Translations under genes and position numbers: made by a program
Notes under the pieces: model-generated
Told to the model about the DNA's origin: nothing
Seen by the model: only the letters and a program-made list of their open reading frames with translations
The model's database searches: none
NCBI GenBank assembly: GCA_022704145.1
Contig: JAKJGY010000084.1
Location: forward strand, 1-16,420
Direction: 5' to 3'
Source of the DNA: Verrucomicrobiota bacterium
GTDB taxonomy: Bacteria; Verrucomicrobiota; Kiritimatiellia; RFP12; UBA1067
DNA length: 16,420 nucleotides
In this document: one piece after another, positions 1 through 15,810 of the stretch
Layout: every line of letters begins with the position of its first letter
Position numbering within the stretch: position 1 is the first letter of the stretch

Positions 1-1537
1 GGCGGTGGAGACGAGCAGGCCCTTGTTCTCCTCGTCGCGGCTGTCGATCAAGGCCTGGCCGGGCGCGAGCGTGTCGAGCGCGAGCCAGAGGTCGACGCTG
101 AAGCCGGCGCGCAGGTCCATGCCGCGCTGGTCCTCGGACTTGGTGTCGCGGCGGTTGAGGGCAGGCAGACGAGGCATAGGCGCCTGCGCCGGGAGCTTGC
201 CCGTGAGATTGAGGATCCGGCCGTTGGTGGCGACGGAGCGGCTGTCCCACTGGGAGAAGAGGCCGGCCACGAGCGGGCGCGGGATCAGGTGGGTGCGGCC
301 CACGGTCTTCTGGGTCTCGGTGATGTAGACGTCGCCGCCGTCCTCGACGAGGTCGGGGTAGCTCATGCGGATGTAGGGGTCGTCGTCGTAGAGCAGGATC
401 TCGGGCTGGGACCACTCGAGGCGCTTGCCCTCGGGCGTGTCGATCTCGCGGCCGGCCATGAGCCAGGCGGGGTTGCGGTCGTCGTAGGGGCTGCGGCCGT
501 CCTTGCCGTTCGCGCCGAGGTCGCCGACGAAGCGTCCGCCGTGGTTGTGGAACCAGTAGAGGAACTGGCCGTTCGCGCACTTCCAGACGAAGTTGGCGGC
601 GCGCGGGTGTTTGACGCGGCGGCCGCCGGGCGCGTAGGTCTTGTAGGCCGGGGTGGTCCAGGAGCGCGCGCCGTCGCGGCTGTAGGCGACAGTCGGCCAG
701 CCGTCGATGGTACGGTAGACGCAGTAGAGCGAGCCGTCGCTGAGGCTGACGATGCTCTGCTCCTCGGCGACGCGGCCGCCGCCGGGCGGGGTGCGCAGGC
801 CGACGGTGCCCTCGGGCAGGGTCTCGAAGGTGATCTTGGCGGGGTCGCGCTCGGAGAGGAGGTTGGGGCTCTTGAGGAAGGCGCCCTCGGACTGCGCGAA
901 GAAGCCCGCGCCCATGGCACCGACCTTGTGGATCACGAGGATGGCGTCAGTGCCGTGGATGAGGGGCTTGCCCACGTTCCAGAAGAACTTCAGCTCGCCC
1001 TTATAGACGTTCTGAAGGTCGCAGTCAAAGGCGCGCATGGGTATCTCGTGGCGCTGCGAAGACCAAGTGCGGCCGTGGTCGTCCGTGTATTTGAAGACGT
1101 AGTGGCCGAGCGAGTCGACGCGCTTGTAGGCGCCGGTGTCCTCGCGCTTGACCTCCGGCACGCGGTCGGTGTTGTGGTTGTAGAAGGCGTAGACGCGGCC
1201 GTAGGGGGTTTTGAGCAGCACGACGTAGGAGGCCTCGGGGCCGTCGGCGGGCTCGATATCGACGGGCTTCTCCCAGGTGCGGCCCCTGTCGGTGCTGCGC
1301 ATGGAGACGATATGCTGGCCGCCCGCGCCCTCGTTGCCCTGGCCGGTGGTGATGGCGCAGAGCCAGGCGCCGTCGTCGGTCTTGACGATGTAGGGCTGGT
1401 CGGCGTAGTGCTCGTCGGGGATCACCCAGCCGTTGGAGAGGTGGCGCGGGTCGGGCACGGGGGCGGGGGGCGCGTCGGCGGCGGGGGTCAGGACGGGCAG
1501 CGCGAGGGCGAGGAGGGAGGCGAGGTTTTTTTTCATG
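1..1537 (-). CDS. Secreted BNR/Asp-box repeat glycoside hydrolase, sialidase-like. Partial; the C-terminus lies beyond the window start.
   Basis: Reverse-strand ATG at 1537-1535 with no stop before position 1 (my own translation; absent from the track because no stop falls in the window). N-terminus MKKNLASLLALALPVLTPAADA is a signal peptide. Three Asp-box motifs are present: STDRGRTW, TDDHGRTW, SRDGARSW. An AGGAGA RBS sits 6 nt upstream, and the start is 13 nt after the upstream gene's stop. Confidence 0.6.
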
Positions 1538-1549
1538 GGATTCTCCTAT

Positions 1550-4500
1550 TCAGAGCTGTGAGAAGCGGTCAAGGTGGTGCAACACGCGTTGGCGGGCCGT
1601 GTGGTAAGGCTGTGGGGTGTTGGCGTAGTCCGAGCGCACGTCTTGGTTATGGTAGTCTAGCACCATCACGCGGATGATGTCGCTGGCGATATCGCGGGCG
1701 GCTTCGGCGTCACGCTGGCGCAGCAGCGCGAGGAGGTCGAAATCCTCGATGCCCTGCTGGAAGGCGGCCATGCGCAGCGAGCCTGCGAGGCCCTGCGCGG
1801 TGGGGTAGAAGAGCCAGTTGTCGCCGGGCGGGTGGCCGGGGTCAATGGAACCGTTGGGGAGCGGGCCGATGCTGCCGGCGTAGGGGTTTGCGCCGCGGTA
1901 GGCGTTGGCGCCCCAGTTCAGGAGCCCGCTGGCGCGGCAGTGGTTCGCGACCCACGGCAGGGCGCGGCAGCGCCAGAGCGGCGTGTCCAGATGGCTGTTG
2001 GGGTGGGGCGGCCGCGGGGTGCAGGCGTAGTAGATCCAGTTCGGCCGGCCGGCTGCGGCGCGCCGGCCGAGGAGGTCGGGCCAGTCGCGCGAGTAGGCGT
2101 ATCCGTACCACCAGGCGGGGACGTCCACGGTCTCGGAGTAACCGTCAAAGGCGTGGTTCAGCGCCTCCAGGACTCGCGCTTCCGGCAGGTGGTGGCGGAA
2201 GGTTGCGGCCATGGCGCGGTATTCCGGAAGAGACTCCGCCTTGGGCTCGTCCCAGAGCGACTGGCAGTAGCGGTCGGCCCAGCCGCACGCGCGGAGGCGC
2301 TCGCGCAGAGCGGTGTAGAAGGCGGGTAGGAAGCGGTTCTGGTAGTCGTCGGCCGCAAGGCCCAGCGGCTGGGGCGCGCCGTTGCAGGGGGGCGCGAGGA
2401 AAACCGCGCGCGGGTTGCGCAGGTGTTGGCCCACGAGGTGGCGGAAACCGAGGCGCTCGGCCAGCGCGGCCCAACGGTCGAAGCGCGCGAAGTCGAAGGT
2501 CCAGCGGTCGGCGTCGGCCGGGTCGCGCGCGACCGGGATCAGCGGGTGTTCGCCCTGGACGAGCGGCGTGAGGAGGGCGGTGTCGCCGAAGTCGCGCAGG
2601 GTGCGGCACGAGGCTTCCAGCAGCGTCCAGTGGGCCTCGCTCCACCAGGGAGGCGGTGGGCCGTCGGTCAGGTTCTGCGGTTCGGGCCAGAGCCAATGCA
2701 GCACGTCGAAGGTCTGCTGTTCCGGCAGCGCGGTCCGGTAGACGCGCAGCGTGAAGGGCGTCTCGGCGGCGGGGCGGCCGTCCAGGGTGGCGCGGAGCAG
2801 GCCGCTGTAGAGGCCGGGCTGTGCGTCGCGCGCGATGTCGAGACGGACCGCAGCGGCGTAGACGGAGCGGCCGTCGAGCGTCAGGGAGGTCTCGTCCGTC
2901 AGCGCCTCATAGACGTCGAAGGGCGCGAGACGCACGAGCGCGCCGGCGACGTCCTTGGGCGGCGCGGCGCTGGCGCGCGTCTTGGCGCCGCCGCCGTAGT
3001 TGGCTTCGACGTGTACGGCGCGCAGCACCTGCGGGCGGGTGCTGCCCGCGAGGCGCGTGCCTGCCTCGGTAACGGGCGGTTCAACGGCGAAGGAGACCGC
3101 GCCGGCGGCCGGCGCGGCGCGCAGGGCAAAAGGGAGCAGGAGGCGGCCTCCGCGTGGGACGTGGGAGCAGGAGGGCGCGTCGCACGGGGCGCGGTCGGTG
3201 TAGATGCGGTCGAGCGGGTCGGCGGCGGTCAGGCGCAGGACGGTACCGTCGTCGAGCGCGGTCAGGAAGGCGTCGGGCGCGAGGGCTGCGGCGGTGAGGC
3301 GGATCTCGTCGAGCGTGCCGTTCCAGACGTTATCGGCGAGGAGCGGGGCGGCGGAAGTGCCCGCGAGGTTGGCGCCCAGGGCGAAGCGCTTGTCGTAGGT
3401 CGCGGCGTCGCCCAGGTCGCCCACTCCTGAGGCCTGGCCCGCGAGGCCGCCGTCGAGATAGAGGCGCATCGTACCCGAGGGGCCGGCGGCCGGATCCCAG
3501 ACAGCGGCCACGTGGTGGGTGAGTCCGTCGTCGTAGCGGGCGGGCGAGAGGACCTGGGCGGTCTGGCCGCTGTTGGCGGTGGCGAAGAAGCGGATCCGGC
3601 CGTTGATCATGATGACGCGCCAGCCGTGGTATTGCGAGAGGGCGGAGCGGGTGCCGCCGATCACCTCGTAGACGGTCTGCGTGCCGAGGGCGCTGTTGCG
3701 GAAGAAGGCCTCGAAGGTCCAGGCCTGGCCGCGCATGTCCAGCGCGGCGTCGTAGGCGCGGAGGGCGGCGCGGCTGCGCGCGAGACTGCCGGCGTTGAGC
3801 GGAGGGCGGCTGTCGTCGAGAAAGCGAGGGGCGCGGCGTTGTGCCACCTGCGGCGTGAGCGGTGGCGCGGCGGTGGCGGCGGCCGCCAGAGTGAGAGGGT
3901 ACGTGCCGGCGGCGTCGAGCAGGAAAGGCGCGCCGGTCGGCTCGTCGAGCTGCCAGAAGGCGAGGGTTTCGGGCGCGGGAGGCGCGAGGCCGAGGCTGCG
4001 GCGCAGCAGCGTGTCGGCGAGGCGCGCGCCGAGGGCGAGCTGTCCGGCGGCGTCGAAATGCACGGCGTCGGCGTTCACGCCCAGGCCTTCGGTGAAGACC
4101 GTGAAGACGTCGGGGAGCGCGCCGGCTGCGCCGGAATCCTGGTCCGCGTCGGCCTGAGCCTGGCGCACGGCGGCTGAGCCGGGGCGCGTCTGGTAGGGCA
4201 GGACGCGGGCCAGGGCAAACGGCAGGGCGGGCGCGTCGAACTGCTCGCGGACGCGGCGGACGAAGTGCGCGAGGTTGGTGCCGTACGCGGTGCCGGCTGT
4301 GGCGCTGGTGGCGTCGGCCTCGCCCTGCACCCAGAGCATGCCGGTCAGCACCGGGGTGTGGCCCTGTGCGCGCAGGGCGGCGAGGGCGTTGGTGACGGTC
4401 GCGGCGAAGGTCGCGAATTCGGTGCCGAAGGCGGCGCTGTCGGCGGGGCTGGCGCCGGGATGCCAGCTCGTGGTTTCGTAGGAGAGCGGCTCGGTTGTGA

Positions 4501-4870
4501 GCTTGGTGCCGCCGCGGGCGTGCTTGACGAGCGCGATGGTGTCGGTGGGAAAGGCTTCGGCGAGGCGGAAGGCGGCGGCCAGTTCCGGCCCGAAGTTCGT
4601 GGGGCTGACGCCGGCCGGGCCGAGCGGGTTCCAGCGGTTGGCGGGCAGGCCCGAGCGGACGGCGGGCGAGTGGTAGAGCCAGGCGCGGCTCTGGCCGAGC
4701 AGGTTGGTCGGGGCTTGGGCGGCCGCGCCCACGCCCTCCATGTTGGACTGGCCGGCGAGCAGGAAGACGCGGCAGGTCTCGGCAGCGGCGGGGCGCGCGA
4801 AGGCGAACGCGAGTGCGGCGCCGAGCAGCGGGAGCGGGGAGAAGCGGCGCGGCTGTTCGGGAGCGGTCAT
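1550..4870 (-). CDS. Secreted multidomain protein: N-terminal sialate O-acetylesterase-like SGNH domain (SASA/DUF303 family), central LamG/concanavalin-A-like domain, C-terminal DUF4091-like putative glycoside hydrolase domain.
   Basis: ORF 1550..4888 in the track (GTG start). I prefer the ATG at 4870 (MTAPEQPRRFSPLPLLGAALAFAFARPAAA, a signal peptide). LLAGQSNMEG is the hallmark GQSNM motif of the sialic-acid-specific acetylesterase family. The mid-region LDEIRLT is LamG-like. The C-terminal WDEP...NWIYYACTP...PGDNWLFYP...GIEDFDLL pattern is typical of DUF4091. Confidence 0.7.
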   Translation of the reverse strand: MTAPEQPRRFSPLPLLGAALAFAFARPAAAETCRVFLLAGQSNMEGVGAAAQAPTNLLGQSRAWLYHSPAVRSGLPANRWNPLGPAGVSPTNFGPELAAAFRLAEAFPTDTIALVKHARGGTKLTTEPLSYETTSWHPGASPADSAAFGTEFATFAATVTNALAALRAQGHTPVLTGMLWVQGEADATSATAGTAYGTNLAHFVRRVREQFDAPALPFALARVLPYQTRPGSAAVRQAQADADQDSGAAGALPDVFTVFTEGLGVNADAVHFDAAGQLALGARLADTLLRRSLGLAPPAPETLAFWQLDEPTGAPFLLDAAGTYPLTLAAAATAAPPLTPQVAQRRAPRFLDDSRPPLNAGSLARSRAALRAYDAALDMRGQAWTFEAFFRNSALGTQTVYEVIGGTRSALSQYHGWRVIMINGRIRFFATANSGQTAQVLSPARYDDGLTHHVAAVWDPAAGPSGTMRLYLDGGLAGQASGVGDLGDAATYDKRFALGANLAGTSAAPLLADNVWNGTLDEIRLTAAALAPDAFLTALDDGTVLRLTAADPLDRIYTDRAPCDAPSCSHVPRGGRLLLPFALRAAPAAGAVSFAVEPPVTEAGTRLAGSTRPQVLRAVHVEANYGGGAKTRASAAPPKDVAGALVRLAPFDVYEALTDETSLTLDGRSVYAAAVRLDIARDAQPGLYSGLLRATLDGRPAAETPFTLRVYRTALPEQQTFDVLHWLWPEPQNLTDGPPPPWWSEAHWTLLEASCRTLRDFGDTALLTPLVQGEHPLIPVARDPADADRWTFDFARFDRWAALAERLGFRHLVGQHLRNPRAVFLAPPCNGAPQPLGLAADDYQNRFLPAFYTALRERLRACGWADRYCQSLWDEPKAESLPEYRAMAATFRHHLPEARVLEALNHAFDGYSETVDVPAWWYGYAYSRDWPDLLGRRAAAGRPNWIYYACTPRPPHPNSHLDTPLWRCRALPWVANHCRASGLLNWGANAYRGANPYAGSIGPLPNGSIDPGHPPGDNWLFYPTAQGLAGSLRMAAFQQGIEDFDLLALLRQRDAEAARDIASDIIRVMVLDYHNQDVRSDYANTPQPYHTARQRVLHHLDRFSQL

Positions 4871-4917
4871 GTCGAATGGGTGCGGCACGGGTGGCGCCCG
4901 TGCCGCGCGGTTATCGG

Positions 4918-7233
4918 TTACTGCACAAGCATCAGCGTGCCGGTGGGCGTGGCCGTGACGGTCAGGCTGGCGGCGCTGCGGCGTTCGCCGTCGGAAGCGT
5001 CCAGCCGCAGCGTGTACACGCCGCTCCGCGTGAAGGTGACGGAGGTGGCGGGGTCGGAGGGGTCGGCGAAGTCGACGTGGGCGGGGTCGCCGGCGACGAC
5101 CGACCAGCCGGTGACGAGTGCTCCGCCTGCGGGCTGGCCGTCGTCTGCGGCCGTCGCGAGCGCGGAGACGGGCTGGCCGGTCTTGACGGTCATGGCGGTT
5201 TGGGCCTCGATCACGGGCGCGTGGTTGTTGTCCGGGTCGGCGGCGAGGCGGCGGATCTCCTCTTCGTTCAGGAAGCGTGAGTAGATGCGCAGCTCGTCGA
5301 GCACGCCGTCGAAGTTGCGGATGCCGCCAGTGGGCCCGTTGTTCGCGACTACGAAAGGCGTGGTGAAATCCACCGCGCCGGGGAAGGGGGTGGTGGTGGT
5401 GGGTTGGGTGGTGTAGGGGTTGGAGATCACCTTGGCGCCGTCGAGGTACATGACCTGTCGCGAGCCGCTGGCCGCGGGGCTGCCGTCGAAGAGGACGGCC
5501 GCGTGGAACCAGCGGTTGGAGGTTATGCCCGCATCTGGCCAGGTCCAGGTGTACTGGGTGGACCCCATCCCGGTCGCGCGCGAGGAGAGGTCGAACTTAC
5601 GGGTCGAGGGATTGTAGAGGATGTAGAAGTTGGGCCCGATGTTGTAGACCCGCTGGATGACGTTGCCGCTGGCGCGCTTGGTGTAGGCCTCGTCGTGGTA
5701 GAACCAGAAGGAGAAGGTCATGTTGGTCGAGTAGGTCGGGAAGGAGGAGCCGACGCCGACAGCGTCGATGCGCGGCGCGCGAAACGCGAGGCCGAGCTTG
5801 CCCGGCTGCAGGAGGGCCGCAAGGTTGAGCGAGAGGGTGATGGCGCCGGCGCTGTCGGTGGCCTTCTTGTCGGTGGGCTCGTCGTCCATCTTCCACCAGT
5901 GGATCAGGCCGTCGGCGAGGTCGCTGGCGGGGGCGGTGACGGCGACGGTGATCTCGTCGCTGTCGCTGGCCGCGCCGTCGTCGGCGGTCAGCCGCACCAC
6001 GTAGGTGCCGGAGGCCGAGAAGCTGGCGGCGGTGGCGTTGGTGAAGGGGTTGTCGAAGAAGACGGCGCCGGGACCGCTGACCTTGGACCAGCGCAGGCGC
6101 GCCGGGCCCGGGTTACCGTCGTCGGTGACCGTGGCGGCGAGCGGCGCGGAGGCGCCGAGCACGGTGCCGGTCGCGGCCCAGGAGGCGGTCACGTTCGGGG
6201 CGGCGTTACCGGCGGGCGCGCTGGCGAGGCGCTCGACCGAGACCTCGTCGGCCACGGCGCCCAGCTCGCTGAAGGCGGTCAGGCGGAAGATGTAGGAGCC
6301 GGGCTCGGGCAGGGTGACGGCGGTTTCGGGGACGTCCGGGAATTCGATGACGGGCGCGGCGCCGTCGGGTGCGGAGACCACGCTCCAGAGGGAGGTGGCC
6401 GAGAAAGCGCGGGTAAAGAGGTTGGTGGGGGCGAGACGGCCTTGGAGGCGCGTCGTGTCGCGGTAGACGGACTGGGCGCCGCCGGCGTCGACGGCGAGCG
6501 GCATATTCTGGTAGAGCGCGAAGACCTCATGGTCCGTCAGGGCGTCATTGTAGATGCGCACCTCGTCCAAGGCTCCGTTCATCGCACGCGTGCCGCCGTT
6601 GGCCGTATTGCCGAGAAAGCCGAAGCTAGCGCCGATGTTATCGGGGGAGTAGGACTTGGGCGTCTGCACGTCGACGCCGCAGCGGATGCCGTTCAGGTAG
6701 AAGACCGGCTGCGCGACCCAGTCGGTGGCGTTGGTGTAGGTCCGCCGCACCACGAGGGAGGCGTGCTGCCACCGGTTGGTCTCGAACTTGAAGGGGATCT
6801 GATCTGGCGTGTTCCACTCGGCTCGGGTAGGCGTAATTCCGAGGCCGATACCGAAGCGCCCTGGCGTATTGAACGCGAACTGATAATACAGGGTGTTGAA
6901 CTGGACGATCTTCGGATAGAGGTTGTTGGTGTACGAGTCGGGAACGTTGAACCAAACGGAGAGCGTGAAATTCGTCAGGTGGGTGCTGGCGTTGAAGCGT
7001 GCCCAGGCGTTGGTCGTGCCGTCGAAGTAGGCGGCCTTGCCGAAGCGGCCGTCCACCATTGTGACGCCGGAGCCGAGCGTACAATGTCGGCCGGAACCGG
7101 AGGCGTCGGAAAGGGTGGTGGCGCCCGGTGCCTCGTCCATGGGCCACCAGCCGATGAGGCGCGGTGCGGCGAAGGCGTGTAAGGAGGCGCAAGTAAGTGC
7201 CAGGCAGAGGACGCGAAGGACAGGTAGGTGCAT
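4918..7233 (-). CDS. Secreted protein with two LamG (concanavalin-A-like lectin/glucanase) domains and PKD/Ig-like domains.
   Basis: 771-aa ORF. Signal peptide MHLPVLRVLCLALTCASLHAFAAP. Two LamG signatures (LDEVRIYNDALTDHEV and LDELRIYSRFLNEEEI). Ig/PKD-like segments (YIFRLTAFSELG, TYVVRLTADDGAASDSDEITV, VYTLRLDASDGERR). GGAGG RBS 6 nt before the ATG at 7233. Confidence 0.7.
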   Translation of the reverse strand: MHLPVLRVLCLALTCASLHAFAAPRLIGWWPMDEAPGATTLSDASGSGRHCTLGSGVTMVDGRFGKAAYFDGTTNAWARFNASTHLTNFTLSVWFNVPDSYTNNLYPKIVQFNTLYYQFAFNTPGRFGIGLGITPTRAEWNTPDQIPFKFETNRWQHASLVVRRTYTNATDWVAQPVFYLNGIRCGVDVQTPKSYSPDNIGASFGFLGNTANGGTRAMNGALDEVRIYNDALTDHEVFALYQNMPLAVDAGGAQSVYRDTTRLQGRLAPTNLFTRAFSATSLWSVVSAPDGAAPVIEFPDVPETAVTLPEPGSYIFRLTAFSELGAVADEVSVERLASAPAGNAAPNVTASWAATGTVLGASAPLAATVTDDGNPGPARLRWSKVSGPGAVFFDNPFTNATAASFSASGTYVVRLTADDGAASDSDEITVAVTAPASDLADGLIHWWKMDDEPTDKKATDSAGAITLSLNLAALLQPGKLGLAFRAPRIDAVGVGSSFPTYSTNMTFSFWFYHDEAYTKRASGNVIQRVYNIGPNFYILYNPSTRKFDLSSRATGMGSTQYTWTWPDAGITSNRWFHAAVLFDGSPAASGSRQVMYLDGAKVISNPYTTQPTTTTPFPGAVDFTTPFVVANNGPTGGIRNFDGVLDELRIYSRFLNEEEIRRLAADPDNNHAPVIEAQTAMTVKTGQPVSALATAADDGQPAGGALVTGWSVVAGDPAHVDFADPSDPATSVTFTRSGVYTLRLDASDGERRSAASLTVTATPTGTLMLVQ

Positions 7234-7257: not shown

Positions 7258-7349
7258 GAGTATGGTATATCGATAAGGAGCCGTCAATCGGTCAGGCGTC
7301 CTGTTTGACAAAAAATCAGGTAGGTTGGTATATTAAAAACAGGAGCAGG
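7258..7349. promoter_or_regulatory. Divergent promoter region between the LamG operon and the GntR gene. Sigma70-like promoter for the GntR gene: TTGACA at 7305-7310, 18-nt spacer, TATATT at 7329-7334 with an upstream TGG (extended -10). Two TGGTATAT motifs (GGTATA at 7264-7269 and 7327-7332).
   Basis: Read directly from the sequence. The AGGAGCAGG RBS precedes the ATG at 7352. Confidence 0.45.
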
Positions 7350-7351
7350 TT

Positions 7352-8068
7352 ATGGCCAATTACAGTATGGCGCGGCAGGTCGATGCGGCGGCAGGGAACA
7401 CGATGTCGCGTCGGATTTACGATGTGTTAAAGGCGGATATCGAGACGGGGCGGCTGAAGCCAGGGGCGCGGCTGGTGCGAAAGGCGGTGGCGGGACGGCT
7501 AGGTGTGAGCACGATCCCTGTAATTGAGGCGTTTTACCGGCTGGAGATTGACGGTTACGTGGAGAACCTACCGCTGGTGGGCTGCCGCGTGCGGGCGCTG
7601 ACGGTGGAGGAGCTGGATGACGACCTGATGTTGCGCGAGGCCCTGGAGTGTCAGGCTGCGCGTCTGTGCGCGGGTCGATTGAGTGTGGAGGAGGGGGAGC
7701 GGCTGATGCGCAAGGCCCGGCAGGTGGACCGGTTCATCCGTGCCGACACGCCGGACGCGACGCTGGGGAACCAGGCACATTTCGAGTTCCATCTCGAGGT
7801 GGGGCGGCTGAGCGGGCGGCGGGTGTTCGGCGAGCTGCTCAAGAAGGTCTGGTTCCAGCGCTATATGAGCCTGAACAGCCTGAAGGCCATGCGTTTTCAG
7901 TCATTGCCGGACGGGTGGCACCAGATCTTAGTGCGGCGGCTCATGAAGGGTGATCCGGACGAGGCGGAGCGTGCCATGCGGGAGCATGTGCAGTTCGGGC
8001 GGCAGGACGACCGTAACGCGCTTGAGCTGTATCTTCGGGAGCGAGTCCGGCCGGGCCTGTCGCGCTGA
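7352..8068 (+). CDS. GntR-family transcriptional regulator, FadR subfamily (N-terminal HTH plus C-terminal FCD ligand-binding domain). NanR-like candidate regulator of the adjacent sialoglycan locus.
   Basis: 238-aa ORF. RIYDVLKADIETGRLKPGARLVRKAVAGRLGVSTIPVIEAFYRLEIDGYV matches a GntR HTH. The all-helical C-terminal domain is FCD-type. The gene is divergent from the glycan operon. Confidence 0.85.
   Translation: MANYSMARQVDAAAGNTMSRRIYDVLKADIETGRLKPGARLVRKAVAGRLGVSTIPVIEAFYRLEIDGYVENLPLVGCRVRALTVEELDDDLMLREALECQAARLCAGRLSVEEGERLMRKARQVDRFIRADTPDATLGNQAHFEFHLEVGRLSGRRVFGELLKKVWFQRYMSLNSLKAMRFQSLPDGWHQILVRRLMKGDPDEAERAMREHVQFGRQDDRNALELYLRERVRPGLSR
8049..8067. repeat. 19-bp exact direct repeat, copy 1 (GGCCGGGCCTGTCGCGCTG). 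It forms the last codons of the GntR gene.
   Basis: Identical 19-mer at 8889-8907, exactly 840 bp downstream. Confidence 0.8.
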
Positions 8069-8914: not shown

Positions 8915-9895
8915 TTACTGAGCCTCGCTGGAGCGCGAGACGGCCTGGCCTTCAGGCCCGAGCGCGGCGCGCGAGCTGCCGCAGGTCGCGAGCACCTGGT
9001 CGGCGGTTCGGAAATGGCACTTGCAGGCCTTGAGCAGGACGGCCGGCCCGGCCTTACGGACCAGTTCAACGGCCGAGGCCTTGACCTGTTCGGATGCGCC
9101 TTTATGCGCTTGGATACCGTAGGTCTCGCCGAGGCGGCCGAGGCTGCGCAGGAAAGACTCGCGGGCGAGCACTGAGGCGGCCGCCACGGCGATGTCCGAC
9201 TCCGCCTTGTGGCGCTGCTCCAGCTTGATCGAACGGCCTTTCTTCATCAGCGCGCGCTCGATCACCTGCTTGGCGCCGAACTGATCGGCCACGGCCCGGG
9301 GGCAGCCGGGCACAGTCTCAAGCAGGTTCTCAATACACCGGGCGTGCGCCCAGGCCAGGAGGCTGTTGACGTTGCGGATCTTGGCATAGAGGCGGTTATA
9401 GGCCTCGGGGCCGATCGAGACCATCGCGAAGCGCTGGGGCCCGAGGAGCTGGCGGGTCTTGCTGCCGATGAATAATACCGCCTTGTCGCTGAGCTGCTTG
9501 CAGTCTTTGACGCCCAGATCCTGCATGGCGTGCGCGAGGTCGGGGTCGACGTATACCGCGCAGGCCACAAGCGGCCCGAAGAAGTCGCCCTTGCCGCTCT
9601 CGTCGATACCCATGTGGGGCGCGACCAGGTCGGGGTTGAGCACCTCCTCGTAGCCGACGGTCGCGTTCTGCAGCACGTTGGGCTCAAGAAAGAAGAGCAC
9701 GAAATCCTCAGCGCCCTTGCCCTGCACCAGGCACTTGCCGCTCTTATACAGGTTGACCACGCAGTCCTGGGCTTCGACGGCGACTACGGTATGGGGAACC
9801 TGCTTGGGCCGGTAGTTTCCCATCTTGAGGAGGAGCTTGAGCGCCTCCTGCTGCTCTTGATTGAGGACGAACGTGTAGGAGTTCTTCTTTTCCAT
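8915..9895 (-). CDS. rnhC: Ribonuclease HIII.
   Basis: The catalytic motif MGIDESGKGDFFGPLV (DESGKGD) lies about 100 aa from the N-terminus, after a TBP-like N-terminal domain, which is HIII rather than HII architecture. The track starts the ORF at a TTG at 9934. I prefer the ATG at 9895 (MEKKNSYTFVL). Confidence 0.8.
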   Translation of the reverse strand: MEKKNSYTFVLNQEQQEALKLLLKMGNYRPKQVPHTVVAVEAQDCVVNLYKSGKCLVQGKGAEDFVLFFLEPNVLQNATVGYEEVLNPDLVAPHMGIDESGKGDFFGPLVACAVYVDPDLAHAMQDLGVKDCKQLSDKAVLFIGSKTRQLLGPQRFAMVSIGPEAYNRLYAKIRNVNSLLAWAHARCIENLLETVPGCPRAVADQFGAKQVIERALMKKGRSIKLEQRHKAESDIAVAAASVLARESFLRSLGRLGETYGIQAHKGASEQVKASAVELVRKAGPAVLLKACKCHFRTADQVLATCGSSRAALGPEGQAVSRSSEAQ

Positions 9896-9944
9896 CGCGC
9901 GCCCATTAGACCATAAAGCGGCCTCGGGTGGCAAGCGAACGGGC

Positions 9945-11174
9945 TCAGGATCCGGCGGCGAGGGCGGCCAGAGGGAAGGGCTCGAGGCAGCGCGGCAGGA
10001 TGCCTTGCAGTGCGGCGATCAGCACACCGTAGTTGACCACCGGAACCCCGGCGGCCTGGGCCTGCCGGATGCGGTAGTGCATCTCGCGCCGGTTGAGCAT
10101 ACAGCCGCCGCAGTGGATCACCAGCGCATAACGCGCCAGGTCGCGCGGATACTTCATGCCGCTGGCGTGCTCGAACTCGAGGGCGCGGCCGGTATGCTGC
10201 CGCAGCCAGCGCGGGATCTTGACGGTGCCGATGTCGTCGGACTGGCGGTGGTGCGTGCAACCTTCGGCCACGAGGACGCGGTCGCCGTCCTTGAGCGACT
10301 CAATGGCCTTGGCGCCGCGCACGAGGGCCTCGAGGTCGCCCTTGTAGCGCGCGAAGAGGATCGAAAACGAGGTCAGCGGCACGTCGCGCGGCGTGTCGGC
10401 CGAGACTTTGGCGAAAACCTGTGAGTCGGTGACCACCAGCCGGGGCTTCCGGGCGAGGAGCGCGAGGGTCTCGCGCAGCTCGAACTCCTTGGTGACCACC
10501 GCGATGGCGTCAGCCTCGAGCACGTCGCGGATGACCTGCTGCTGCGGCAGGATCAGGCGGCCCTTGGGCGCGGCCTTGTCAATCGGCGTGACCAGCACGA
10601 CAAGATCCGAGGGACGGAGCAGATCACCGAGGAGCTGGAACTTGTCGGCCTCCTCCGGCACGGCCTGGGCCAGGGCGAGCTTGAGATCCTCGACCCCGTC
10701 GCCGGTCGCAGACGAGACAGCGTGGGCCGGCCGGCCGGACGCGGCGGCGGCCTCGGCGAGCTGAACGGCGTCGGGCGCGGCGAGGTCAGCCTTGTTGTAC
10801 ACGGCGAAAAGCGGGAGGCCTTTGGTGCGCACAAGGCCGAGGATCTCACGCTCGCAGTCGCCTAGGCCGTGCTCGGCCTCCAGCACCAGGAGGGCCACGT
10901 CGGTCTTATTCAGCACATCGCGCGCGCGCTGCACGCGAAGGGCGCCGAGCGCACCCTCGTCGTCGAGCCCCGGGGTGTCGATGATCATGACCGGCCCGAG
11001 CGGCAGCAGCTCCATCGCCTTGTAGACGGGGTCGGTGGTGGTGCCCTTGACGGCCGAGACGATCGAGACCTCCTGGCCGGTGAGGGCGTTGATGAGGCTG
11101 GACTTACCGACGTTACGTCGGCCGAAGAGGGCGAGGTGCGTGCGTTCGCCTTGGGGTGTCTGATTGAGGCTCAT
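9945..11174 (-). CDS. hydF: [FeFe]-hydrogenase H-cluster maturation GTPase HydF.
   Basis: 409 aa. G1 motif GRRNVGKSSLINAL, TTTDPVYK, DTPGLDD and NKAD GTPase motifs. C-terminal EGCTHH...(x45)...HCGGC matches the HydF CxHx(44-53)HCxxC cluster-binding signature. The protein aligns along its whole length with what I recall of Thermotoga HydF. Confidence 0.88.
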   Translation of the reverse strand: MSLNQTPQGERTHLALFGRRNVGKSSLINALTGQEVSIVSAVKGTTTDPVYKAMELLPLGPVMIIDTPGLDDEGALGALRVQRARDVLNKTDVALLVLEAEHGLGDCEREILGLVRTKGLPLFAVYNKADLAAPDAVQLAEAAAASGRPAHAVSSATGDGVEDLKLALAQAVPEEADKFQLLGDLLRPSDLVVLVTPIDKAAPKGRLILPQQQVIRDVLEADAIAVVTKEFELRETLALLARKPRLVVTDSQVFAKVSADTPRDVPLTSFSILFARYKGDLEALVRGAKAIESLKDGDRVLVAEGCTHHRQSDDIGTVKIPRWLRQHTGRALEFEHASGMKYPRDLARYALVIHCGGCMLNRREMHYRIRQAQAAGVPVVNYGVLIAALQGILPRCLEPFPLAALAAGS

Positions 11175-12147: not shown

Positions 12148-13254
12148 ATGTCGCTGCAGCGCGGAAACTTCGGGATCGAGTTCGACGAGCGTCCGGGCTT
12201 TCCTTACCGGCGGTTGCTCTGGACAGCCGCGCTGATCCCGCTGGCGGCGGTGGCCCTGGTGCTGACGCGCGGGTGCGCGCCGGAGGGCGAGGGCACGGCG
12301 GAGAACAATGATCCTTTGACGGCCGCCCGGTTCGACGCTCCGGAGGTGCGGGTCCACCGCGAGCGGCCGTCGTTCCTACAGCACCTGTTCCGCCGTCGCG
12401 CCGAGACGGGGGCTCCCGCCGCGGCGGCGGGCGGCGGGCAAGGGGACGCCGGCGAGGCGCGGGGCGCGGGCTGGCATGCGGCGGGTGGGGCACGGCAGAC
12501 GCCAGGGGCCAAGGCGTTGCCGGCCGAGGTGCGGCGGCTGCTGGAGCTGGCGGCGGCGCGTGAGGCCGACGGCGATCTGGCGGCGGCGCGCGAGGCGCTC
12601 CGTAAGGCGCTGGTGCGCGGGGACGCCCAGGAGCTGCGGCCGTTTGTCGAGCGCAAGCTCGGGGCGGTCAACGTGGCGTTGCTCTTCACCGACCGGCCTG
12701 CGGCGGAGAAGGCGCGGCACCGCATCGCGCCGGGCGATCTGGTGGGCAAGCTGGCGCGGCGTTACGGCTGCACGCAGGAGTATCTGCTTAAAGCGAACGG
12801 GATCGACCGTCCTGAGGCGCTGCGCGTCGGGCGGGAGGTCTGGGTGCTCACGCGGCCGGTCTTCGAGCTGACCGTGCTCAAACGGGACTCGAGTGCGGTC
12901 CTGACGCTCAACGGGCGCTTCTTCAAGCGTTATCCGATCGGGGTGGGGCGACCGGGCGAATCGCCCAACGGCGAATATGTGGTGCGCGACCGTGTGTGGC
13001 GGCCCGCCTACCGCGCGCCGGGGGTGGGCGAGGTGCCGTCAGGGCACCCCAACAACATCCTGGGGGCTGCCTGGCTCGGCCTGGCTGCGGCGGAGGGCAC
13101 ACCCGTGGCCCCCGGGTTCGGCCTGCACGGGACCGCCAACGAGTCGTCGCTCGGCCGGCCGTCCGAGGAGGGCCGCCTCCGTTTCGGCAACGCCGACATC
13201 GAGGAGCTGTTCACGCTGCTGCCGTCGGGCTCACGCGTGAACGTCGCCGACTGA
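12148..13254 (+). CDS. Membrane-anchored LysM-domain protein with a C-terminal L,D-transpeptidase (YkuD)-like domain that lacks the catalytic cysteine.
   Basis: 368 aa. ATG is 2 nt after the pdxJ stop. N-terminal hydrophobic segment LLWTAALIPLAAVALVL. LysM-like IAPGDLVGKLARRYGCTQEYLLKANGI. YkuD pattern YPIGVGRPGESPNGEY...NILGAAWLGL...GFGLHGT is present, but SEEGRLRF stands where SxGC[IV]R is expected. There is no Cys anywhere in the domain. Confidence 0.75.
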   Translation: MSLQRGNFGIEFDERPGFPYRRLLWTAALIPLAAVALVLTRGCAPEGEGTAENNDPLTAARFDAPEVRVHRERPSFLQHLFRRRAETGAPAAAAGGGQGDAGEARGAGWHAAGGARQTPGAKALPAEVRRLLELAAAREADGDLAAAREALRKALVRGDAQELRPFVERKLGAVNVALLFTDRPAAEKARHRIAPGDLVGKLARRYGCTQEYLLKANGIDRPEALRVGREVWVLTRPVFELTVLKRDSSAVLTLNGRFFKRYPIGVGRPGESPNGEYVVRDRVWRPAYRAPGVGEVPSGHPNNILGAAWLGLAAAEGTPVAPGFGLHGTANESSLGRPSEEGRLRFGNADIEELFTLLPSGSRVNVAD

Positions 13255-14151: not shown

Positions 14152-15810
14152 ATGGGCATATTCAGTGACCGGTGTGACGCGTTGATCGACCCCAACACGG
14201 GGCGGGCCTTGGGTGGCGAGGCGCTGGCGCAGGCGAAACTGGAGCCGAAGTGGCCGCGTTGCAACAACTCCGTGCGCAAGGCGGCGCGGTTCTGCAACAA
14301 GTGCGGCTCGGGCGCCCCGGGCGGCTGGTGGCGCTGCCCCTCGTGCAAGAAGTGGATCGGCAACGAGGCGCAGTTCTGCTCGCACTGCAACACCCCGCTC
14401 TTCCCGGAGGACCGCTCGGTCATGGCCGGCGGTGTCTGGCGCAAGGATGTCGGCCTGTTCGCGCAGCGCTTTGAGATCGGCGACGTCAAGCGGCTGCTCC
14501 AGAGCGACCTTCTGGTGCAGGAGGGCACGGTGGCGGTGGTCTTGGACGGCGGCCACGTGCACGGTATCCTGGGCAGCGGACGTCACAACCCGGACAGCCT
14601 GGCGCGTGCGATCAACTGGTTCGGCGACCCGCCGCCGCGCTCGGTGGTGATGGTGGATGTCGGCGATGTGGCGCTGCCGTTGCGCGTCGAGGGGCTGCGT
14701 ACGGCCGAGCATCATCCGATCGCGTTCTACGGCGAGGTGATCCTGCGTTTCGGAAACGACAAGGCCGCGGCCTTGGCCTTGCTGGAGAACGCGCTTAAGG
14801 ACGCCCGCCACCTGGCGTATAAGGAAATCTCAGAGAGCCTGCAGGGGGTGGTGCGGGCGGCGGTCGACGCGCTGTGCGTGACCTCCACGCTCGACGACCT
14901 GGTGCGCGACCCGGAGCGGCGGACGCGCCTGCAGGAGACGATGACGCGCATGATCGGCGCGGATATCGGCCGACGCGGGTTGGCGGTGGTGCGGGTCTCC
15001 TCGGCCGAGTTCACCGGCGACGAGTACGAGGCGTACGCCGAGCGCCTCGGCGACGTGGACATCAAGCGCCGCGAGCAGGAATACGCCGACACGGTCCGTA
15101 AGCTGAAAAAGAAGGAGGAGATGGAGGCGTACAAGGACGCGGACGAGCTGCGCGCCTTCAAGGCCCTCATCGACAGCGAGTACCGCGTCTCTCAGGCCAC
15201 GCGCGACCGCGAGTGGGAGCTGCTCAAGCGCGAGTGGCAGCATGACGACATCCGACATCAGCAGCTTCTGGAGGTCGAGCGCACGGCGCATGCGATCGGT
15301 GTGCAGGTCCAGAAGGACGACTACGGCCGCGACAAGGACATCAAGGACGCGGGCGCGGCGGCGGAGGCGCGCGACCAGACGTTCGGGCAGGAGCGCAAGG
15401 AGGCGGAGTGGGCGCTCGACATGCGGTCCCGTAAGGATCAGATCGAGCTGGACCGCAAGGCGGCCGAGGCCAAGCGGCGCGAAGGCATGACCACCGAGCA
15501 GATGCTGGCGGACGTGGACGACCCGTCGCTGCGCAAGGAGCTGGTCGAGCTGATGAAGGCGGAGCGCAACCGCACCATGACGCCGGAGCAGATGCTGGCC
15601 GAGGCGGCGCTGCACAACCCGGCGGCGGCCGAGGCGCTCGCGCGCATGGCCGACCGTACGCGGCAGAACGCCGAGCAGGTGCTGGCCGAGATGAAGAAGC
15701 TCTATGCCGACGCGGCCGAGCGCCAGGACCGGAACCTCAAGACCATGCTCGAGCCGGCCGTGGAGGCCGCCAAGCGACAGGCGGCCCAGCCGCAGACGAT
15801 CGTGCATTAA
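14152..15810 (+). CDS. Flotillin-like protein: N-terminal double zinc ribbon, central Band-7/SPFH domain, C-terminal long charged coiled-coil with MT[TP]EQMLA repeats. No transmembrane segment.
   Basis: 552 aa. Zinc ribbon: FCNKCG...RCPSC...FCSHC. SPFH-like block: LLVQEGTVAVVLDGGHVHGILGSGRH...VDVGDVALPLRVEGLRTAEHHPIAFYGEVILRF...LAVVRVSSAEFTGDEYEAYAERL. The C-terminus is E/R/K/A-rich and contains GMTTEQMLADV and TMTPEQMLAEAA. GAGGTGG RBS. Confidence 0.65.
   Translation: MGIFSDRCDALIDPNTGRALGGEALAQAKLEPKWPRCNNSVRKAARFCNKCGSGAPGGWWRCPSCKKWIGNEAQFCSHCNTPLFPEDRSVMAGGVWRKDVGLFAQRFEIGDVKRLLQSDLLVQEGTVAVVLDGGHVHGILGSGRHNPDSLARAINWFGDPPPRSVVMVDVGDVALPLRVEGLRTAEHHPIAFYGEVILRFGNDKAAALALLENALKDARHLAYKEISESLQGVVRAAVDALCVTSTLDDLVRDPERRTRLQETMTRMIGADIGRRGLAVVRVSSAEFTGDEYEAYAERLGDVDIKRREQEYADTVRKLKKKEEMEAYKDADELRAFKALIDSEYRVSQATRDREWELLKREWQHDDIRHQQLLEVERTAHAIGVQVQKDDYGRDKDIKDAGAAAEARDQTFGQERKEAEWALDMRSRKDQIELDRKAAEAKRREGMTTEQMLADVDDPSLRKELVELMKAERNRTMTPEQMLAEAALHNPAAAEALARMADRTRQNAEQVLAEMKKLYADAAERQDRNLKTMLEPAVEAAKRQAAQPQTIVH

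Follow-up and report, generated by a model that had tools for sequence, protein, structure and literature searches.

The stretch of DNA analysed here (the window) comprises 16,420 nucleotides of contig JAKJGY010000084.1, from assembly GCA_022704145.1 of an uncultured member of the Kiritimatiellae, and on its minus strand it carries a gene (1550..4870) whose product joins an SGNH/SASA esterase domain, a LamG domain and a glycoside hydrolase family 123 (GH123) domain in one polypeptide. The gene was confirmed as real and, judged from its sequence, encodes a secreted three-part protein predicted to be carbohydrate-active. It probably acts as a tri-modular esterase, LamG and GH123 enzyme, and its gene is the second of three in a probable operon, lying between genes for a LamG-PKD protein and a sialidase-fold BNR protein.

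The fusion gene and its three modules

From its ATG start the gene encodes 1106 amino acids (aa) and a stop, as seen in the list of open reading frames (ORFs) and in the sequence, and an alternative upstream GTG start at 4888 (ORF 1550..4888) would give a product of 1112 aa. The 1106-aa form is the one found in the public database (P0001, 100 % identical) and its residue numbering is used below unless the 1112-aa form is stated. The coordinates given in an earlier note on this DNA match this ATG form, while the 1112 aa which it gave as the length are those of the GTG form. A putative Sec-type signal peptide (aa 1-30, 4781..4870, minus strand; MTAPEQPRRFSPLPLLGAALAFAFARPAAA followed by E) was read from the sequence without a predictor, with the cut between AAA and E lying shortly before the esterase domain. 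The N-termini of the orthologues likewise show a hydrophobic leader, ending in A-x-A/K directly ahead of the SASA domain. A Tat signal, suggested by an RR pair in the window protein, was rejected because this pair is not conserved in the orthologue leaders.

A Pfam search of the 1112-aa translation returned three domains, each well above its curated cut-off, these being SASA (PF03629, aa 40-295, E-value 8e-31, 107.8 bits against 24.8), Laminin_G_3 (aa 384-538, E-value 5.3e-13, 49.8 bits against 27.6) and GH123_cat (PF13320, formerly DUF4091, aa 746-1056, E-value 1.4e-36, 126.9 bits against 23.1), all in 1112-aa numbering. The SASA, LamG and DUF4091-like domains named in the earlier note were thus all called correctly, the profile matches for SASA and DUF4091, on which its reading depended, being far beyond chance; its description of the last as a DUF4091-like putative hydrolase uses an outdated label, as DUF4091 is the model of the GH123 catalytic domain. 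The same three-domain ORF is present in 12 further independent assemblies (54-79 % identity), and an assembly or frameshift artefact was therefore rejected, at least 13 independent assemblies sharing the fusion. Between orthologues, identity is 64-77 % for the SASA, 57-79 % for the LamG and 48-64 % for the GH123 module.

The esterase domain (aa 34-289; 4004..4771, minus strand) was delimited by Pfam, motifs and an AlphaFold2 model. It has the motif GQSNMEG at aa 40-46 with the predicted nucleophile S42 (4745-4747), followed by G121 (block II), Q182-G183-E184-x-D186 (block III, QGExD), D268 (4067-4069) and H271 (4058-4060), all on the minus strand. Alignment of 48 SASA-family proteins shows G-Q-S-N, the block II Gly, W-x-Q-G-x-x-D and the His to be invariant, and the catalytic residues are kept in all 13 orthologues. 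The SGNH Ser/Asp/His set, whose completeness the earlier note had made a test of its proposal, is thus complete and conserved. The replacement of Asn by Gln in block III has been described for carbohydrate esterase families 6 and 20 (CE6 and CE20), while the D268-x-x-H271 block aligns with the DxxH of 1ZMB and 2APJ. The model of aa 30-310 (predicted local distance difference test, pLDDT, 94.1; predicted template modelling score 0.92) together with a Foldseek search indicates an α/β/α SGNH fold, the matches being led by the compact CE6-type esterases 2APJ (At4g34215, 3e-14) and 1ZMB (Clostridium acetobutylicum, 3e-13), followed by the CE20 enzyme XAC1771 (7KMM, 5e-10) and then the sialic-acid esterases, mammalian SIAE (7e-9) and NanS (2e-8).

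By fold the domain is therefore not closer to the sialate esterases, as the CE6-type and CE20 structures come ahead of SIAE and NanS. Sequence comparison matched just 1ZMB and 2APJ (E-value of about 1e-6), and a search with the SASA domain gave no NanS or SIAE match even at E-values up to 10. The earlier note had taken GQSNMEG to assign the domain to the sialate 9-O-acetylesterases, an assignment that does not hold, because GQSN is found family-wide and PF03629 also takes in esterases of CE6 and CE20 that act on xylan and xyloglucan. Sequence and model together identify the first module as a predicted carbohydrate O-acetylesterase of the compact CE6-like SASA type, whose specificity is not transferable from its relatives.

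The second module is a LamG or concanavalin-like β-sandwich (aa ~296-540, Pfam core aa 378-532; 3251..3985, minus strand), with the representatives P0171 and P0280 aligning to aa 301-537 of the fusion protein. Junction alignments show almost no linker between it and either flanking domain. It is probably a carbohydrate-binding module (CBM).

The third module consists of an N-terminal β-sandwich (aa ~543-735; 2666..3244, minus strand), delimited by alignment with NgaDssm and by the published domain description (PMC11087588), and a (β/α)8 catalytic domain (aa ~740-1100; 1571..2653, minus strand), delimited by Pfam, by the structure 8K2J and by residue conservation in 39 sequences. The nearest characterized enzyme, NgaDssm, is a GH123 'Group 3' (OR/MR) β-N-acetylgalactosaminidase from a deep-sea sediment metagenome (PDB 8K2J/8K2K; Sumida et al., 2024, PMC11087588). 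It frees N-acetylgalactosamine (GalNAc) and Galβ1-3GalNAc from β-linked aglycones with retention of configuration and a preference for GalNAc4S, and it has no known natural substrate; these groups are part of GH123 since CAZy reconstituted it as a large family (PMC11087588). The C-terminal 560 aa match NgaDssm end to end, with aa 549-1083 (1112-aa numbering) forming a colinear alignment with residues 7-524 of 8K2J (E-value 3.5e-46) in which the DE motif is aligned. The score against 8K2J is 160 bits, compared with 67 for NgaLy, 36 for NgaAt, 34 for BvGH123 and 12 for NgaCa.

When the list of conserved GH123 residues, given in NgaLy numbering (PMC11087588), is applied to the window protein, the DE motif is found as D874-E875 (2246-2251, minus strand), and Y947, G982, W986, Y1022 and R1033 are the equivalents of NgaLy Y392, G427, W431, Y466 and R478. 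These seven and W726, the equivalent of W204, are conserved in 38-39 of the 39 sequences; H1013 is also among the conserved residues, and the GH123 catalytic set, like that of the esterase, is kept in the 13 orthologues. On this evidence the module is a complete GH123 β-N-acetylgalactosaminidase by prediction, nearest to 'Group 3'.

A number of points weigh against this reading of the protein. Of the nine residues described as strictly conserved among GH123-like proteins, two, NgaLy D95 and W115 at the interface of the N-domain and the barrel (PMC11087588), are replaced by E and A, and the positions of NgaDssm H479 and L485, in a loop that differs between the two proteins, do not align cleanly with the window protein. 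In addition, no NCBIfam model matches the fusion protein, the BNR protein or the neighbouring unknown proteins, and co-transcription of the three genes is inferred from their spacing. At the D95 and W115 equivalents (aa ~655 and ~680) the window protein and about 38 relatives have Glu (in YEAL) and Ala, Leu or Val. As around 25 stand-alone relatives share these substitutions, they appear from the alignment to be a subfamily trait, neither a sign of decay nor specific to the fusion.

Rarity of the fusion and the states of its slot

In a HMMER search of 1.84 billion representative sequences only P0002 (78 % identical) spans all three modules among the top 150 matches, the others being SASA(-LamG) or (LamG-)GH123 alone. 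No further protein with both catalytic modules is to be expected at this similarity, since it would outscore rank 150 (about 126 bits). The full architecture was found in 3 of 185,579 species genomes, all of them metagenome-assembled genomes of Kiritimatiellae, and the fusion protein forms 13 clusters at 90 % clustering. The view that the architecture is unusual is thereby borne out. A search of the literature on the fusion, or on GH123, sialidase or esterase systems of Kiritimatiellota, found nothing.

Other pairings of these modules do occur, namely SASA-sulfatase (P0238), SASA-GH95 (P0242) and SASA-LamG-LamG (P0164), as well as LamG-GH123 and CBM9-LamG-GH123 proteins in other uncultured bacteria (P0137, P0150, P0165, P0167), which suggests that the modules are routinely shuffled among the glycan-degrading enzymes of these phyla. 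However, none of these proteins joins SASA to GH123, and identity per module is at most 49 %. By its sequence the fusion is a rare re-assortment of commonly shuffled, known modules of carbohydrate-active enzymes (CAZymes).

When metagenome loci of close relatives were collected using the BNR protein, the slot which the fusion gene occupies was found in three states. In five (L084, L086, L089, L092, L095) the LamG-PKD gene lies directly beside the BNR gene with nothing between; in two (L083, 2214..3902, and L085) the slot holds a SASA-LamG protein of 562 aa with its own stop; and in three (L082, L087, L090) it holds the full fusion. In L083 the stop codon of SASA-LamG is followed at once by the BNR gene. 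It was considered whether the short SASA proteins (P0014-P0018, P0160) are all contig-end fragments, which was rejected for the SASA-LamG form on account of this stop. The SASA-LamG form ends in GTSFHITRFD, a sequence similar to the strand with which GH123 begins in the fusion (GTVLRLTAADPLDR), which suggests that the form arose by loss of GH123 from a fused ancestor. As SASA-LamG alone holds the same slot before BNR, the esterase appears to be functionally tied to the BNR gene even where GH123 is missing.

The operon and its neighbourhood

The TGA of the fusion gene lies at 1550-1552 and the downstream gene starts at 1536, the two being closely packed without overlap. A spacer of 13 nt (1537..1549, minus strand; ATAGGAGAATCCC) separates stop and start and includes AGGAG, a ribosome-binding site of the gene that follows. 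In the orthologous pairs the fusion and BNR genes abut or overlap by 4 nt. Spacing and conserved order thus agree with the proposal that the fusion gene lies directly upstream of the sialidase-fold gene in one operon. The upstream gene (4918..7233, minus strand) encodes a 771-aa protein, secreted and with the Pfam domain order LamG-PKD-LamG-PKD, whose position is kept in L001-L007. Beyond it lies a divergent gene (7352..8068, plus strand) for a regulator assigned by Pfam to the GntR/FCD family, its position being kept in L003-L006, L081, L084, L086 and L095. The order GntR, LamG-PKD, fusion, in some cases a second LamG-PKD, and BNR is kept in L001-L007, and that of GntR, LamG-PKD, fusion and BNR also in L082 and L090.

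The 118-bp intergenic region between the divergent genes has promoter-like sites on both strands (7259..7334; minus 7287-7259, plus 7305-7334); the consensus scan found three such sites where 0.4 were expected, all confined to the divergent region and identified as consensus matches only. Two copies of the octamer TGGTATAT lie there (7263-7270 and 7325-7332), where they overlap the promoter-like -10 elements, and the octamer may be an operator. Between the genes of the operon no terminator-like site above chance was found, and terminator-like sites inside the genes were set aside as being at chance level.

The downstream gene (1..1536, minus strand), cut by the end of the window, encodes a sialidase-fold β-propeller of the BNR/Asp-box type and, behind it, the beginning of a LamG domain; the full-length orthologue in L001 has 625 aa. 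Its match to BNR_2 is weak (E-value 5e-12), comes through the repeated blades and is not colinear, while its profile matches NanB, NanC and NanA at E-values of about 1e-6. In a local alignment D46-Q47-P48 takes the place of the R-I-P of NanA, and this DQP is invariant in 41 sequences of the family. E259 and R275, both invariant among the BNR family sequences, align with NanB E541, the Glu partner of the nucleophile, and NanB R557, the second Arg. When the last third of the propeller (aa 296-432) was used as a profile, no PDB sialidase was matched; candidates for the Tyr nucleophile and the third Arg are Y393 and R312, which do not vary across the family. An AlphaFold2 model of the BNR protein, made from an alignment of seven close orthologues, was unusable (pLDDT 33). 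The gene had been described as BNR sialidase-like, which stands as far as the fold is concerned, but it is not a canonical sialidase as RIP is replaced by the invariant DQP. Its product is best regarded, on sequence grounds, as a sialidase-fold protein with a modified carboxylate site and not as a demonstrable sialidase.

No other member of the operon is as conserved as the BNR protein (70-90 % identity, against 54-70 % for the fusion), and its highly conserved BNR-LamG family comprises at least 173 metagenome loci, of which 80, each at least 52 % identical, were retained. At 14 of these 80 (L102, L105, L108-L110, L120, L121, L126, L130, L131, L133, L138, L143, L145), the BNR homologues being more distant (about 55 % identical), genes of heme biosynthesis (hemC, hemD/cobA, hemB) lie within the 4-kb flanks. 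In L133 and L143 the homologue sits between hemC-hemD/cobA and hemB, an odd site for a secreted glycosidase.

A number of further genes were seen at the orthologous loci only and none of them lies inside the window. L003 (2293..6042, 20475..21458) and L004 (957..4596) have, beside the GntR regulator, genes of tripartite ATP-independent periplasmic (TRAP) transporters, with DctQ and DctM in both and DctP in L003, of an HpcH/HpaI aldolase and of a 2-hydroxyacid dehydrogenase; URO-D/MtaA-like genes are present at these loci too. No NanA-type lyase is listed at the orthologous loci. Additional BNR_2 propellers also occur there, one with a weak match to BT_1020 (GH143-like). For two such BNR_2 paralogues phmmer gave just Asp-box-level similarity to sialidases, and no canonical GH33 enzyme was identified in the locus.

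Elsewhere in the window, the regions 8915..11174 (minus strand), 12148..13254 and 14152..15810 (both plus strand) code for an RNase HIII-like protein (RNase_HII and DUF3378), HydF, a LysM-YkuD L,D-transpeptidase and a zinc-ribbon/SPFH protein with a long charged C-terminal region. HydF is an [FeFe]-hydrogenase maturase and fits an anaerobic lifestyle. The G+C content of the window is 63-75 %, and GC skew is positive on the plus strand throughout the contig (0.06-0.25), whatever the orientation of the genes.

Proposed function and comparison with known systems

In the proposed mode of action the enzyme, once exported by Sec, would dock on a glycan through its LamG domain in the manner of a CBM. 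The SGNH module would then hydrolyse O-acetyl esters, with S42 as nucleophile, H271 as base, D268 in support and G121 and Q182 forming the oxyanion hole, and so unmask the chain for glycosidases. The GH123 module could next cut β-GalNAc linkages by substrate-assisted retention, D874 orienting and polarising the 2-acetamido group and E875 acting as acid/base; from such linkages the closest Group 3 enzymes release GalNAc or Galβ1-3GalNAc. The downstream propeller might remove a further, probably acidic, residue and the LamG-PKD protein would bind the polymer, the operon being placed under the divergent GntR/FCD regulator. The predicted target is an O-acetylated, β-GalNAc-containing and probably acidic glycan; a polysaccharide from environmental microbes or algae is no less likely a substrate than a sialoglycan, and a sialoglycan or mucin is entertained only as a possibility.

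A more definite version of the first of these is that the target is an acidic but non-sialic glycan made by microbes or algae (exopolysaccharide, capsule or scale) containing 3-deoxy-D-manno-octulosonic acid (Kdo), 3-deoxy-D-lyxo-heptulosaric acid (DHA), 2-keto-3-deoxynonulosonic acid (Kdn) or another (non)ulosonic acid besides O-acetyl groups and β-GalNAc. Hydrolysis of the acid sugar would then fall to the DQP propeller, with the esterase as its partner, and GH123 would be an addition particular to the lineage. This is put forward tentatively. It draws on the core of the locus, which is GntR and BNR with the esterase/GH123 gene present, shortened or absent in its slot, on the greater conservation of the BNR protein and the wide spread of its family in environmental metagenomes, and on the extra propellers (one of them weakly like BT_1020, a GH143 DHA-hydrolase-like protein), the TRAP transporter, the HpcH/HpaI aldolase, of the 2-keto-3-deoxy-acid type, and the dehydrogenase at orthologous loci. 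However, the transporter and aldolase genes lie outside this window and their support is indirect, the Pfam matches to BT_1020 are weak, and a BNR homologue amid heme-biosynthesis genes in another lineage is not suggestive of glycan use. The chemistry of the substrate is also not derivable from sequence. A still more speculative extension would have the GntR and DQP propeller-LamG core, widespread in sludge, soil and freshwater, represent a new glycosidase family for a non-sialic (non)ulosonic or other acidic sugar of microbial exopolymers, with SASA as its dedicated de-O-acetylating partner and the fusion as a lineage-specific addition that removes neighbouring β-GalNAc.

It is unlikely that the esterase is a sialate 9-O-acetylesterase and that the operon degrades an O-acetylated sialoglycan, for example the Sda/GM2-type structure GalNAcβ1-4(Neu5Acα2-3)Gal on host mucin, through esterase, sialidase and β-N-acetylgalactosaminidase in turn. 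Loci for sialic-acid use often carry a GntR/FCD regulator and a TRAP transporter, both of which are met at the orthologous loci; PGAP names the fusion orthologues 'sialate O-acetylesterase' and the BNR orthologue 'exo-alpha-sialidase'; the residues aligning with NanB E541 and R557 are kept; and the bifidobacterial enzymes SiaBb3 (GH33 and GH123, acting on Sda) and SiaBb1 (a sialidase with esterase activity) provide precedents. Against this, GQSN is a family-wide motif and the SASA domain is nearest to the CE6-type 2APJ and 1ZMB with no NanS or SIAE match by sequence, while in the BNR protein an invariant D46 takes the place of the first Arg of the triad and the last third of the propeller matches no sialidase. 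The aldolase listed at the orthologous loci is of the HpcH/HpaI and not the NanA type, and relatives, to judge by the names of their contigs, stem from metagenomes of activated sludge, lake hypolimnion and groundwater and not from hosts. The role on a sialoglycan, possibly of the host mucin type, proposed in the earlier note is accordingly unsupported.

That one module is dead or re-purposed (GH123 as a binder, a β-N-acetylhexosaminidase or a lacto-N-biosidase-like enzyme), leaving a single-activity enzyme, is very improbable. In its favour, GH123 has been lost from some close relatives, where just a remnant of its first strand is left, other residues stand at the D95 and W115 equivalents, and the Group 2 relatives of GH123 are β-N-acetylhexosaminidases (PMC11087588). 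Against it, 38-39 of 39 sequences preserve the DE motif along with every conserved residue that contacts the substrate, the best match by far is GalNAc-specific (160 bits, against 36 for a Group 2 β-N-acetylhexosaminidase) and the E/A substitutions are common to the stand-alone relatives.

If the tri-modular protein is active as predicted, it would be the first bifunctional enzyme joining an esterase to GH123, and it would offer a handle on the natural substrates of Group 3 β-N-acetylgalactosaminidases, since the fused esterase and the operon partners tell of the other decorations of the substrate. The public label 'sialate O-acetylesterase' hides a complete predicted glycoside hydrolase, while the label 'exo-alpha-sialidase' of its neighbour is doubtful. 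The slot states (absent, SASA-LamG and SASA-LamG-GH123) provide a clean natural example of the gain and loss of CAZyme modules. Otherwise this is an ordinary multi-modular CAZyme made of known families, and the DQP-type propeller family next door may be the more intriguing lead.

Among known esterases, 2APJ and 1ZMB resemble the esterase of the window in having an SGNH fold with the GQSN, QGExD and DxxH blocks, although identity with these best structural matches is merely 19-21 %. More distant relatives are the CE20 enzymes XAC1771 (7KMM) and Fl8CE20_II (9H4U), mammalian SIAE (8F9O-R) and Escherichia coli NanS (3PT5); the CE20 esterases have inserted or flanking β-sandwich domains, which the SASA module of the window lacks. 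With NgaDssm, the GH123 module shares a colinear β-sandwich and (β/α)8 barrel, the DE motif, the W204 equivalent and the Y/G/W/Y/R set, and the same retaining, substrate-assisted mechanism would be expected of it. However, NgaDssm is a stand-alone protein of about 540 aa, whereas the GH123 of the window sits behind an esterase and a LamG domain.

The closest precedents for the combination come from Bifidobacterium bifidum, in which the bifunctional SiaBb3 combines GH123 with GH33 and acts on the Sda antigen (PMC12856340), and in which the sialidase SiaBb1 also has esterase activity according to Ashida et al. (2018), as cited there (reference 23 of PMC12856340). Like the predicted fusion enzyme, these combine a β-N-acetylgalactosaminidase or an acetylesterase with another de-capping activity on a single secreted chain. 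The partners differ, as in the fusion the esterase is joined to GH123 and the sialidase-like gene is separate and lacks the arginine of RIP, and the bifidobacterial GH123 belongs to the classical subfamily and to the gut, whereas the setting of the fusion is environmental.

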